A stretch of 57,356 bases of DNA from an uncultured bacterium (GCA_903839725.1 CAIMDG010000001.1:301315-358670), one strand, 5' to 3'; shown: positions 11,750-15,197, counted from the first letter of the stretch. Translations and numbers: made by a program. Notes: generated by a model not told the origin, from the letters alone.

Positions 11750-14089
11750 ATGAAACTCGTTATCGTAGAATCCCCTTCAAAATCAAAGACTATCACCAAA
11801 TATCTCGGTGAAGGATATATTGTGCGCGCATCAGTTGGCCACGTTCGTGATCTTCCAAAATCAAGTAAGAAAGCAATCGACATTGGAGCCGGATTCACAC
11901 CTCATTATGAAGTTGTTGCCAAGAAAGAAGAAGTTCTCTCTGATATCGCTGCTCAATCACGCAAAGCTGACGAAATATTACTTGCAACAGACCCGGACCG
12001 TGAAGGAGAAGCGATCGCATGGCACATAGCAGAAGTGCTCAAAGACCGTCTCGGTAAAGGGGCTATCAAAAAAATGCAACGCATCAGTTTCCACGAAATT
12101 ACCAAGGAAGCTGTACAGGAGGCTCTCAAAAATCCTCGTGAGATCGATCAAAATCTCCGCCAAGCACAAGAGGCTCGACGCGTGCTTGATCGACTTGTTG
12201 GTTATGAACTTTCTGGTCTTATCTGGAAAAAAGTTCGCTACGGTCTTTCTGCTGGACGTGTCCAATCACCCGCATTACGTATCATCGTCGAACGTGAACG
12301 AGAGATCAAGGCATTCATTCCAGAAACCTATTGGGCTTTGAGCGGTGAATGGAAAACAAAGAAAGGAGACAAACTCACTCTTACCTGCGTTGAAGAACCT
12401 CGCAACAAAGCACATGTTGATTCTATTCTCGACGCTGCACGTAACAACCCATGGCACGTTGTAGATATAGAAGAGTCTGAACAAAAGCGTTCATCAAAAG
12501 CCCCTTTCATCACTTCGACATTACAGCAGGCTGCAAGTTCACGTCTCGGATTCTCACCATCACGAACTATGGGTATTGCTCAGAAACTCTATGAAGCTGG
12601 ACACATCACCTACATGCGTACAGACTCAACAAATCTCGGCGCACAAGCTGTTGCGCAGATCGTCTCAGTTGTTACCAAAAATTATGGCAAAGAATACGTG
12701 AATGTCAGAACCTTTGCTACAAAAAGTAAAAATGCCCAAGAAGCTCACGAAGCGATCCGTCCAACCAATTTCAGCAAAGAATCAGTCGGGGCTAACGATG
12801 AGCAGAAGAAACTATATCGTCTCATCTGGGCACGTACCGTCGCCTCACAGATGACTGATGCGCGCATGGCGAAGACAAAAATTATCGCAAATATCAAAGG
12901 TCCGACTATTCCTGACTTTACCGCAGTTGGTTCACGCATCCTTTTCGATGGTTGGCTCAAAGCTGACCCTGATTCAGTTGGCGAAGAAGTTACACTGCCA
13001 CTCTGTGCAAAAGATGAACCGTTGGCACTTATCTCTATTGATTCACAAGAAAAGCAAACTCAACCACCAGCTCGATACACCGAAGCTGGACTTATCAAGG
13101 AGCTCGAGAAGCGTGGTATCGGTCGTCCTTCTACGTATGCTTCTATTTGTCGCACCATCGAAGAACGTGGCTATGTGGAAAAAGAGGGACGCTCACTCAA
13201 ACCAACCGATACCGGTGAAGTTGTTTCTTCATTCTTGGAAGAATACTTCCCTACATATATCAGTGATACATTCACTGCCGAAATGGAAAATGAACTCGAC
13301 GAAATAGCCAGTGGCGAACGCACATACTTGAAGACTCTGACAGATTTCTATTGGCCATTCCACCAAGAAGTATTGTCGAAAGATAAACTTGCAAAGGCAA
13401 CCAATCTCGGTGCTGCAGATCCAAAATTCGTATGTCCAAAATGTGGAACTACTCCTATGGAGATCAAACTCGGCAGAAATGGTAAATTCCTTTCATGCTC
13501 AAAATACCCTGATTGTGATGGAGCGCTTACGCTCGACGGCACCGAATTCAAGAAAGATGAACCTATCGGTATTGATCCGACAACCAACCTTCCTATTTTT
13601 GTCTTGAATGGTAGATTTGGTCCATATGTCCAACTCGGTGTGAAGCCACCAAAAGTGAAGAAGGTAAAGAAACCAAAAGTTAAAAAAGGGAAAGTTTCAA
13701 AGAAAAAAATCGATGCAAATACGCAAATGATCGCGAATGACGCGAATGGCATCGCAACTGAAATACCAATCGTAGAAGCAATTCCGGAAACTCCAGTTGC
13801 ACCAAAACCTCGCATGGCTTCAATTCCCCGCACTATGGATCCTTCCAAGGTTACTATTGCTGATGCCCTCAAATACTTGAGTCTTCCTCGTACGCTCGGC
13901 ACTCACCCTGTCTCTGGTAAAGACGTCGTCGCTTCAAATGGTCGTTTCGGCCCATATGTTGCTCATGATAGTAATTATCGTTCAATCAAAGCACCTGACG
14001 ATGTATATGAAATATCTCTTGCGCGAGGCCTTGAATTGTTAGCTATTGAAAAGAAACCACGAGGGTTCAAGAAAAAAACTGATAAATAA
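11750..14089 (+). CDS. topA: DNA topoisomerase I
   Basis: LVIVESPSK, ATDPDREGEAI, SAGRVQS, ITYMRTD; zinc ribbon plus C-terminal GRFGPYV repeats. Confidence 0.97.
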   Translation: MKLVIVESPSKSKTITKYLGEGYIVRASVGHVRDLPKSSKKAIDIGAGFTPHYEVVAKKEEVLSDIAAQSRKADEILLATDPDREGEAIAWHIAEVLKDRLGKGAIKKMQRISFHEITKEAVQEALKNPREIDQNLRQAQEARRVLDRLVGYELSGLIWKKVRYGLSAGRVQSPALRIIVEREREIKAFIPETYWALSGEWKTKKGDKLTLTCVEEPRNKAHVDSILDAARNNPWHVVDIEESEQKRSSKAPFITSTLQQAASSRLGFSPSRTMGIAQKLYEAGHITYMRTDSTNLGAQAVAQIVSVVTKNYGKEYVNVRTFATKSKNAQEAHEAIRPTNFSKESVGANDEQKKLYRLIWARTVASQMTDARMAKTKIIANIKGPTIPDFTAVGSRILFDGWLKADPDSVGEEVTLPLCAKDEPLALISIDSQEKQTQPPARYTEAGLIKELEKRGIGRPSTYASICRTIEERGYVEKEGRSLKPTDTGEVVSSFLEEYFPTYISDTFTAEMENELDEIASGERTYLKTLTDFYWPFHQEVLSKDKLAKATNLGAADPKFVCPKCGTTPMEIKLGRNGKFLSCSKYPDCDGALTLDGTEFKKDEPIGIDPTTNLPIFVLNGRFGPYVQLGVKPPKVKKVKKPKVKKGKVSKKKIDANTQMIANDANGIATEIPIVEAIPETPVAPKPRMASIPRTMDPSKVTIADALKYLSLPRTLGTHPVSGKDVVASNGRFGPYVAHDSNYRSIKAPDDVYEISLARGLELLAIEKKPRGFKKKTDK
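13711..13747 (+). repeat. Half-copy of palindromic family B inside topA (encodes DANTQMIANDAN)
   Basis: cgatgcaaatacgcaaatgatcgcgaatgacgcgaat closely matches an arm of the intergenic IR at 39454-39562. Confidence 0.75.
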
Positions 14090-14096
14090 CATGTGT

Positions 14097-14125
14097 TTGC
14101 ATTACAAATTAAATTATTGTAGTAT
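14097..14125 (+). promoter_or_regulatory. Putative sigma70 promoter
   Basis: TTGCAT-17 nt-TAGTAT immediately upstream of the ORF-less structured region. Confidence 0.55.
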
Positions 14126-14131
14126 CGAAAA

Positions 14132-14543
14132 TAGCGATGCTAGATCTTTGAACAAAAAAGAGTTGATTCCCCGTTACAAGGGATAAGGCTAAACCTCACC
14201 GCCTACGTGTGGGGTGTCGAGGGATATTGTACCGCCACAGGCAATATGGACATCTCTGTCGCCAATGAAGCAAGTTGTTCAAGAGGCAAACATCCTGGAA
14301 AGTTACACAGGACGTACAGATACCCTAGAGGTGAAAACGTCTAGGAAGCTACGATTGAATTGAAGGCAATTCAACTCACAGATGCATATTCGATACTCCC
14401 GTGTGAATTTGTTCTCGGCCGAGAACTTCTTCACGTTTCCACCACATGGGCAATTAAGACGCAAGTCGCAGTTCCCTCGTGGTAAGCCTAAACGAAGATC
14501 TCTTTGCTCCGAAAGTTCCCCCTACGCAAGTGGGGGGCTTTTT
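14132..14543 (+). ncRNA. Candidate large structured non-coding RNA (unclassified)
   Basis: No ORF in the track; many hairpins, some with GNRA loops; 5'/3' closing helix; flanked by promoter and intrinsic terminator. Confidence 0.6.
14513..14543 (+). terminator. Intrinsic terminator
   Basis: ccccctac-gcaa-gtgggggg followed by a T-tract. Confidence 0.75.
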
Positions 14544-14615
14544 ATTGTATATGTATAAAAATGTAATTAAAAAACAGTAGGAACGAATTCCTACTGTCGC
14601 GCACGTATGTGCACT

Positions 14616-15197
14616 TCAAACCAGCATTGTCCTCAAATCAATCTGCTTGAGAACCCCAAACATGGCACGATGAAGATCTTCGAGGGTGCCATTGTTGTTG
14701 ATATGGAAATCAGCCATCGCAATGACCTTGCTCACATTGTGAGCATACGGATCAGGATTTTCTGACTCAAGGCGTTCGAATTCGACGAACTCATCGAAAG
14801 TCACTTCATCGCCGAGACGCTTACGTGCTTTGGTCCGCTCATAGCGAACATGTTGAGGCGCATCGATTGCTACCACGACAGCTCCATGAGCTTTGAGGGC
14901 GGTAATTTCAGCCACCACACGAGGACCAGCAACGACGAGATATTCTGCTTCATTTTCTTCCAAAATATGTGGTATTGGAAATGCAGGACCAAACTTCCGC
15001 CGCAATTCCGTAGAAACTTTGTTGAGATTTGTCGGGCTCGTATCCCCGAGGTTATGTGTTGTGACATATGACCTGATGTAGTCGCCCGTAGAAACAAAAG
15101 TAAAATCACAAGCGTCTCTCAAATATTCTGCAGCAGCGTCTTTCCCAGTGAGCGGATGTCCGACGATACAGACCAATTGCAATGGTTCATGATTCAT
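14616..15197 (-). CDS. P-loop nucleotide kinase (archaeal-type dephospho-CoA kinase-like)
   Basis: GHPLTGKD Walker A, STGDYIR, R..AEI, VRYER, ADFHINNNGT. Confidence 0.7.
   Translation of the reverse strand: MNHEPLQLVCIVGHPLTGKDAAAEYLRDACDFTFVSTGDYIRSYVTTHNLGDTSPTNLNKVSTELRRKFGPAFPIPHILEENEAEYLVVAGPRVVAEITALKAHGAVVVAIDAPQHVRYERTKARKRLGDEVTFDEFVEFERLESENPDPYAHNVSKVIAMADFHINNNGTLEDLHRAMFGVLKQIDLRTMLV

Follow-up and report, generated by a model that had tools for sequence, protein, structure and literature searches.

Does the 526-nt gap between topA and the AAA_17 gene converging on it, in an uncultured bacterium of the candidate phyla radiation (CPR), hold a gene for a large structured RNA, and if so, does that RNA belong to a known family? 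The gap lies within a 57,356-nt stretch of DNA (GCA_903839725.1 CAIMDG010000001.1:301315-358670; hereafter the window) from a genome (G000) of 839 kb in 3 contigs, with ~41% G+C, and the initial annotation had placed in it an unannotated stand-alone RNA of ~400 nt. From comparison with homologues in four related genomes, we conclude that the gap very probably holds a real, conserved gene, transcribed on its own, for a structured RNA of a new family. The proposal of a stand-alone large RNA is borne out by the lack of any Rfam match or conserved open reading frame (ORF), by promoter and terminator signals kept among relatives, by a covarying structure and, in one relative (G085), by the context of the gene. 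The locus is arranged as follows:

11750-14089, + strand: topA (Pfam Topoisom_bac, Toprim and others)
14097-14102, + strand: −35-like hexamer TTGCAT, read in the window sequence
14120-14125, + strand: −10-like hexamer TAGTAT, 17 nt beyond the −35
14132-14545, + strand: predicted RNA, ~414 nt, starting at the inferred 5′ end and including the whole U run of the terminator
14518-14545, + strand: intrinsic terminator (8-bp stem with 6 G-C pairs, GCAA loop and U run)
14616-15197, − strand: AAA_17 gene, 193 aa, converging on topA

The predicted ends of the RNA are placed by its promoter and terminator signals. The TTGCAT-17-TAGTAT promoter has the hexamers and spacer first proposed for it, and its support comes not from its match to the sigma-70 consensus (7 of 12 positions, by our count) but from a geometry that recurs in all five homologues: a −35-like hexamer, 16–17 nt, a −10-like hexamer, 7 nt and then the first paired base. 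At the same offset from the RNA 5′ end, the −35 equivalents are TTGCAA (G063), TTGACA (G085), TTGCAA (G028) and TTGCCC (G026), and the −10 equivalents in the homologues are TAAGAT, TATACT, TTATAT and TATAGT. The intrinsic terminator, also part of the initial annotation, is listed by the terminator scan (14518-14537 plus the T run); terminators lie 3′ of the RNA in all four complete copies (G000, G085, G028 and G026), and the same scan lists another hairpin, at 14573-14598, which serves the oppositely oriented AAA_17 gene.

Known RNA families and coding content

At gathering scores, the 4227 models of Rfam 15 matched only 5 tRNAs in the whole window and nothing at the RNA; at E ≤ 10 within 14050-14620, there were 12 matches in the gap, all far below gathering scores and mostly over the terminator, and the G063 and G085 copies gave no relevant match at E ≤ 5. 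For the three copies, the OLE, ROOL, GOLLD, raiA and HEARO models gave no gathering-score match and, at E ≤ 10 or E ≤ 5, no match of relevance. The group I and group II intron models gave no match at gathering score or at E ≤ 10, and the gene is intergenic with promoter-like and terminator signals of its own, not inserted inside a host gene as introns are. No match at E ≤ 10 was returned by the RNase P models (RF00010/RF00011) within 14050-14620 or by the signal recognition particle (SRP) models (RF00169/RF01854) in the RNA region, and ARAGORN found no transfer-messenger RNA (tmRNA; RF00023) in the window; the genome's RNase P RNA (G000:C3:65710-66033, 107.5 bits) and tmRNA (C2:146527-146918, 99 bits) are on other contigs. 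Rfam and ARAGORN are in agreement with the initial annotation, which had seen no signature of RNase P, tmRNA, SRP or group I/II introns, and the Rfam scan found no known family at gathering score, nor any relevant one at E ≤ 10. The portions of papers on CPR bacteria that were available contain no description of such an RNA. Judged by its sequence, the RNA is new as a sequence and structure family and is not in Rfam 15.

The gap also holds no ORF of 60 aa or more, as first observed: the longest are 58 aa (+ strand, 14382-14558) and 53 aa (− strand, 14303-14464). Between copies, tblastx gave only short, frame-switching matches, with stop-free runs of at most 72 codons and no conserved ORF; with the sequence that follows topA in 26 relatives as its target it gave no match, and indels between copies are not multiples of three. 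A pseudogene was considered and rejected, given the lack of a conserved frame and of any tblastx match downstream of topA in relatives.

Homologues and their distribution

Among 93 genomes of the genus (including G000), five carry the RNA: G000, G063, G085, G028 and G026. The expectation that homologues would be found in CPR genomes thus held in part, in that homologues exist and their structure has compensatory changes, but they are confined to 5 of the 93 genomes of one genus and are not a general CPR feature. Nucleotide BLAST (BLASTn) of the RNA against 60 relatives gave no match, whereas the same search with the genome's RNase P RNA as a control matched 54 of the 60; BLASTn is therefore too blunt for this RNA, which both evolves much faster than a housekeeping RNA and is rare.

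BLAST against all 92 other genomes of the genus recovered collinear matches in G063 and G085 and missed G028 and G026; its matches in G111 and G113 sit in apparently coding sequence. The three sequences found first (G000, G063 and G085) are 52–56% identical in pairwise comparison. A covariance model of the 3′ domain (R1), run on the 93 genomes at E ≤ 0.1, detected these three strongly and G111 weakly (20.8 bits, E = 0.045; treated as a chance match), and on five sister genomes it gave matches of 17.5 and 14.3 bits only, the better one in apparently coding sequence. The RNA region is single-copy in G000, as is the RNA in each carrier detected by R1. The G028 copy was located by synteny and an nhmmer profile of the three sequences, downstream of topA (E = 2.7 × 10−4), and the G026 copy by a two-block pattern on the invariant helix P2 (see below), a pattern that is non-specific on its own (the reversed control gave 10 matches in the 93 genomes), although its five forward hits all share other blocks. 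In G028 the RNA is split across two contigs (the ends of L211 and L212) that overlap by 55 nt, and the G063 contig (L041) ends within the 3′ strand of helix P1, leaving a copy that lacks its 3′ end; these breaks of the assembly inside the RNA gene, in two of the five carriers, would fit population-level heterogeneity.

Outside the genus the RNA was simply not found, and the exact patterns run on the genome, metagenome and viral collections would miss variants like those of G028 and G026. The R1 model gave nothing in 150 other genomes of the order, and a pattern search nothing in 400 (223 genera). A first, loose exact pattern gave at least 120 matches, comprising chance ones from all phyla and actinobacterial 23S ribosomal RNA (rRNA), and two stricter patterns run on genome contigs returned only a record with a sequence identical to that of G063, plus two chance hits each. 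An exact-pattern scan of metagenomes found one locus, with an RNA matching that of G085. Viral contigs gave 0 and 17 pattern hits, none of the 17 being accepted by R1 at E ≤ 1 with filters off, and BLAST against phages and plasmids found nothing similar.

A conserved fold

Independent minimum-energy folds of the G000, G085 and G063 sequences converge on one topology. Applied to these three sequences, RNAalifold gives a predicted structure of 77 pairs, of which 27 have compensatory changes. In this structure 91.5% of the 223 cells pair, compared with 35.6–46.4% when partners are slid by 1–3 columns, and both sides have changed in 28 of the 77 predicted pairs, compared with 2–7 in the slid controls. 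When 12 helices from four sequences were registered by hand in a table, canonical pairs filled 223 of its 230 cells; of the 67 positions, 24 differed on both sides and 33 did not vary. Substitutions are concentrated at paired positions and are compensatory, and the + strand is favoured over the − strand (22 versus 7 G-U cells; 91.5% versus 84.8% of cells paired). With a length of several hundred nucleotides, multiple helices and compensatory change, the RNA has the structural hallmarks of an orphan large RNA. The parts of the predicted fold, all on the + strand, are:

14133-14137: 5′ strand of P0, pairing with 14504-14508
14142-14150: 5′ strand of P1, pairing with 14493-14501
14168-14183: hairpin H1, UCCC/GGGA (C-G becomes U-A in G085; longer in G028 and G026)
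14186-14190: 5′ strand of P2, AGGCU, followed by AAAC, pairing with AGCCU at 14485-14489
14193-14215: hairpin H2, of variable length (17–47 nt between fixed blocks in the first three sequences; short and UUCG-capped in G028)
14213-14224: junction block GGUGUCGAGGGA, nearly invariant in G063 and G085
14221-14229: 5′ strand of P3, GGGA and UAUUG, pairing with 14391-14400 (CGAUA-C-UCCC) with a one-base bulge
14230-14390: central domain within P3, with the small hairpin H3, P4, a variable arm, H6 and H7 (same topology in the G000, G085 and G063 folds)
14243-14259 with 14378-14390: P4, inside the central domain
14324-14345: H6, with a GNRA-like loop
14355-14374: H7, with loop AAGG
14403-14434: hairpin H8, with a covarying stem and the self-complementary loop GGCC at 14417-14420
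14441-14483: hairpin H9, whose base ACCAC/GUGGU covaries with GUCAC/GUGAU and AUCAG/CUGAU
14485-14513: 3′ strands of P2 (14485-14489), P1 (14493-14501) and P0 (14504-14508) and the tail CCGAA, from the folds

In this predicted architecture, P0, P1 and H1 lead to P2. Beyond P2 is a junction at which H2, P3, H8 and H9 meet and whose unpaired linings, CUAAAC (twice) and GGUGUCGAGGGA, are conserved; P3 encloses a second multi-helix domain containing P4, H6 and H7. P2 (AGGCU/AGCCU) is invariant in all five copies and the flanking CUAAAC strands are also unvarying; the junction block takes the form GGGGUUGCGGGA in G028 and G026, and a stretch in the region of the 3′ strands, UGCUCCGAA, also occurs in G085. 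Both-side changes occur in the closing helices P0 and P1 in G085, G028 and G026 (P1 is altered in G026), and the extension of P3 differs in each genome yet remains complementary: AAUC/GAUU, AACUGU/ACAGUU, GUG/CAC (G028) and CGUUC/GAACG (G026). The stems of H6 and H7 are almost wholly different between genomes (that of H7 is GGAG/CUCC in G028 and CUGACGG/CCGUCAG in G026), with their loops retained.

Most of the helices originally read from the single sequence recur in relatives: agatct/agatct as P1, tccc/ggga as H1, cctcac/gtgggg as H2, cctaga/tctagg as H6, ttgaattg/caattcaa as H7, gttctc/gagaac as H8 and accac/gtggt as the base of H9. The aggct/agcct pairing, offered as a possible long-range pseudoknot, is a real helix and invariant in all five copies, but it is nested (P2). 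Two others were not kept in relatives, namely ttgaacaa/ttgttcaa and atattg/caatat, the atattg stretch pairing instead with 14391-14395 within P3; tcctg/cagga and gac-GCAA-gtc are present, in this sequence only.

Independence from topA

The RNA lies directly after topA in four of the five copies (G000, G063, G028 and G026). In G085 it has a DUF1761 gene on one side and a converging DUF6498 gene on the other, ~140 kb from topA, and because that copy sits in an unrelated neighbourhood, an element of the topA 3′ untranslated region (3′UTR) is effectively ruled out and a cis-acting role for topA is unlikely. In G026, topA has a terminator of its own upstream of the RNA promoter; in this window, the scan lists none between topA and the RNA.

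Further observations concern these neighbourhoods. The protein encoded by the DUF6498 gene beside the G085 copy (L176, G085:C1:100642-103752) was not found in G006, G036, G031 or G063 with this query, and the neighbourhood in G085 may be variable. In the window, the end of the topA coding sequence includes 10 nt (14056-14065, ACCACGAGGG) with perfect complementarity to H9's 3′ strand (14474-14483) and a resemblance to the 5′ strand of H9 itself; in a transcript reading through from topA, ACCACGAGGG could compete with H9. Inside the 3′ part of topA, at 13711-13747, is a 37-nt stretch of 9-nt tandem-like units (CGCAAATGA / CGCGAATGA / CGCGAATGG), to which many unrelated contigs from three lake metagenome runs align (depth summing to 87–185, compared with ~10 in the flanks), some of them only 37–38 nt long; it may be a short repeat common to many genomes or low-complexity coding sequence.

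An optional cassette

The promoter, RNA and terminator together form a unit that a close relative lacks:

14088-14569, no strand assigned: cassette of promoter, RNA and terminator, 482 nt, missing from a close relative in X6

In the DNA run X6 (from a third study; record 19), one 1223-nt contig at depth 11 skips exactly 14088-14569, covering 13604-14087 with 46 differences and continuing straight to 14570-14810 with 12 differences. In this relative (~90–95% identical) the stop codon of topA and the shared hairpin of the terminator are kept but the RNA cassette is missing, and the deletion junction shares 2 nt only. Apart from this joined deletion, lack of X5 (an RNA library; see below) or X6 cover elsewhere in the stretch is not evidence, and the runs X1 and X3, which contain the entire stretch, were not counted as independent because this DNA may derive from them. 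The RNA gene is apparently dispensable and optional. A link to the neighbouring AAA_17 gene was rejected, as X6 has AAA_17 without the RNA and the G085 copy is not beside AAA_17.

The only mobile-like trait of the cassette is its presence/absence polymorphism: it has no terminal inverted repeats and no clear target duplication, and no transposase, reverse transcriptase or recombinase adjoins the RNA, whose neighbours are topA and AAA_17. Near the two cassette ends are copies, 74% alike, of a 23-nt direct repeat: the one at 14107-14129 covers the promoter spacer and −10, and the one at 14565-14587 reaches across the deletion junction into the shared terminator, of which it covers the first arm. 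The repeat may be chance in AT-rich DNA.

In a tree of topA (28 rows; a single gene, with G026 left out for its partial topA), the four carriers fall within one well-supported subclade of 19 rows (98/99), and where positions are resolved, carriers have non-carrier sisters (G063 with G031, G085 with G006 and G036, and G028 with G010). The simplest history would be one origin at the topA site in the genus subclade, followed by long vertical descent in which the gene was lost repeatedly and relocated once; alternatively, homologous recombination through topA may have spread it.

Weight of the evidence

The case for an RNA gene of a new family rests on the comparison of homologues because folding energy alone does not settle the matter (z = −4.1 and −3.4 for the + and − strands; z = −2.6 for mononucleotide shuffles of the RNA without its terminator). 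A hint of transcription comes from an RNA library of another study (X5; freshwater sediment), in which the only two contigs on 13600-15100 map to 14143-14282 and 14348-14497, 95–99% alike, with none over the ~1100 nt of flanks. The initial annotation had pointed to metatranscriptome coverage as a check, and these depth-2 contigs are a hint, not proof, that the RNA is expressed in that sample.

Several considerations weigh against our conclusion. The X5 contigs, at depth 2 in Logan, carry no strand or end information, RNA libraries may hold DNA, and the chance of both contigs landing on the RNA is ~8% by our estimate. The promoter hexamers are a weak match to the consensus and are absent from the list of the consensus promoter scan. 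In folding energy, 12 random genome windows had a mean z of −1.0 (sd 2.2), with 2 of the 12 as low as the RNA or lower. None of 500 shuffles attained the observed pairing values, a comparison overstated by the use of three related sequences and of a structure derived from the same alignment, and the register of the 12-helix table is our own. With only five sequences, one of them cut at its 3′ end, covariation statistics are thin; P2 and most junction bases are invariant and so provide no covariation evidence for or against their pairing. The GGCC loop is kept in four of the five copies, the G026 counterpart of H8 not being identified with confidence, and no conserved neighbouring gene, partner or ligand was found for the RNA.

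One of the 12 random windows, G000:C1:67372-67757, which lies outside the window analysed here, folded far better than its shuffles (z = −6.6).

The SRP system in the genus

The genus has a further peculiarity. RF00169 found no SRP RNA in the 93 genomes, nor in G000 at E ≤ 10, and RF01854 found none in G000. The Ffh M domain (PF02978) was not detected in a set of 61 genomes, which comprised 37 members of the genus (G000 among them) and 24 genomes belonging to other families of the order, and the SRP54-type GTPase domain common to Ffh and FtsY (PF00448) was not found in G000, which is 96.7% complete; control genomes were matched in these searches. The SRP system looks absent from G000 and its relatives, judging from these model searches, and a literature search brought up no report of such an absence. 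Replacement of the SRP RNA by the RNA described here was considered and rejected, since 88 of the 93 genomes have neither.

Alternative explanations

Five other explanations were weighed, given here in falling order of likelihood. The foremost, itself rather improbable, would make the cassette a selfish RNA-only element, or one that was once mobile (for example an insertion element that is non-autonomous, or what remains of one), with a fold that would serve its own spread or maintenance and not the host. Such an element would account for the precise lack of the promoter-to-terminator cassette in a close relative, the two unrelated contexts (after topA, and with DUF1761/DUF6498 in G085, where the DUF6498 neighbour was not found in 4 related genomes), the patchy occurrence among close relatives and the contigs that break inside or beside the RNA in G063 and G028. 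However, the RNA is single-copy in its genome, its ends offer no terminal inverted repeats or clear target duplication (a 2-nt junction and one 23-nt repeat, 74% alike), no transposase, reverse transcriptase or recombinase lies alongside, and the phage, plasmid and viral collections searched yielded no similar sequence; moreover, four of the five copies occupy the same site, with topA ~66–75% and the RNA 52–56% identical, which fits old vertical descent with losses. Less probable still is a ribozyme, self-cleaving or otherwise catalytic, with the invariant junction bases as its active site. Large, intricately folded bacterial RNAs have often proved to be catalytic, and both the size of the RNA and its multi-helix junction with invariant unpaired nucleotides would fit, but it matches no Rfam ribozyme (group I/II introns, RNase P or small self-cleavers), has no evident processing site or substrate and is dispensable.

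The remaining three are very unlikely. A structured 3′UTR or cis element of topA, stabilising or regulating the topA mRNA in a read-through transcript, would explain why four of the five copies directly follow topA and is compatible with the lack of an intervening terminator in this window and with the perfect complementarity of 14056-14065 to the 3′ strand of H9; it is at odds with the G085 copy (~140 kb from topA, behind the DUF1761 gene), with the topA terminator that precedes the RNA promoter in G026, with promoter-like hexamers at a fixed distance before all five copies, and with the 88 of 93 genus genomes, plus the X6 relative, that have topA without the RNA. Slightly less likely again is a very divergent housekeeping RNA (SRP, 6S, a second RNase P-like RNA or an rRNA fragment) missed by the Rfam models, for which one can cite the lack of a detected SRP RNA in G000 or any of the 93 genomes, and the occurrence of the blocks AGGCUAAACC and GGUGUCGWGGGA in actinobacterial 23S rRNA. 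Yet an RNA present in only 5 of the 93 genomes, and missing from a close relative, cannot be a housekeeping one. The proteins of the SRP were not found either, the SRP, 6S, RNase P and rRNA models all fail to match at E ≤ 10, and the likeness to rRNA is weak (nhmmer E = 0.006–0.17), limited to blocks selected by pattern and found nowhere else in the RNA's own genome. Least likely of all is a decayed protein-coding gene, or a gene for a small protein, in which the structure would be incidental: there are ORFs of 41–58 codons on both strands, but none is conserved, frames switch, indels are not multiples of three, tblastx against the topA-downstream regions of 26 relatives gave nothing, and substitutions are compensatory and concentrated at paired positions.

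The rRNA blocks were observed in Actinomycetota 23S rRNA (L100, L128, L135, L163 and L173), where, ~270–320 nt from the 5′ end, AGGCTAAACC, a hairpin and GGTGTCGTGGGA follow one another in the manner of the two blocks of the RNA. An rRNA mimic was rejected, the weak nhmmer likeness being judged chance amplified by the conservation of rRNA.

Proposed mechanism and significance

For the RNA gene of a new family that we favour, the mode of action that we lean towards, by a small margin over doubt, is that the RNA acts in trans as a folded scaffold, binding protein or associating with itself, and not as a cis-regulator or antisense RNA. In this model the P2/H2/P3/H8/H9 junction would be the functional core, and the conserved loops (GNRA-like in H6, AAGG in H7 and GGCC in H8) would make tertiary or RNA–RNA contacts. 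Homodimerisation through the GGCC loop is doubtful as a specific prediction, but is a testable idea given that GGCC is kept in four of the five copies while the stem of H8 covaries.

Conserved, intricately folded large RNAs are rare, and those of known function are ribozymes, cores of ribonucleoproteins or self-assembling particles. CPR (Patescibacteria) genomes are tiny, with little spare DNA, and are thus an unexpected host; a 0.4-kb non-coding gene kept at ~55% RNA identity therefore implies selection. Its clean absence from a relative that is ~90–95% identical suggests a conditional role and makes carriers and non-carriers a natural experiment, and the size of the RNA suits in vitro transcription, chemical probing and cryo-electron microscopy. 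A bolder suggestion, which we put forward tentatively and think more likely wrong than right, is that the locus represents a new class of ornate RNA-only accessory gene: a 0.4-kb cassette whose product would self-assemble or act catalytically via its own tertiary or quaternary fold, long kept in some CPR lineages, shed by close relatives, and an example of a wider set of unrecognised, lineage-specific large RNAs in Patescibacteria.

Comparison with known large RNAs

Bacterial RNase P RNA (RF00010) is similar in size, and it too is closed by a stem, joins conserved 5′ and 3′ blocks through a long-range helix and contains junctions of several helices. In contrast to RNase P RNA, the long-range helix here is nested and not a pseudoknot, the RNA is dispensable, and RF00010 is unmatched at E ≤ 10. 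A closer general resemblance in kind is to the OLE, ROOL, GOLLD and raiA motif RNAs, which are also long and stand-alone, have many covarying helices and conserved junction or loop nucleotides, and were found by comparison. OLE, ROOL and GOLLD are larger than the ~410-nt RNA here, and none of the Rfam models of these four RNAs matches it; unlike them, it is confined to 5 of 93 genomes and has no associated protein gene, phage or tRNA context. According to PMC12286853, OLE, ROOL and GOLLD form homo-oligomers. Compared with these homo-oligomeric ornate RNAs, the RNA downstream of topA has a self-complementary GGCC loop in four of its five copies, the only hint of oligomerisation.

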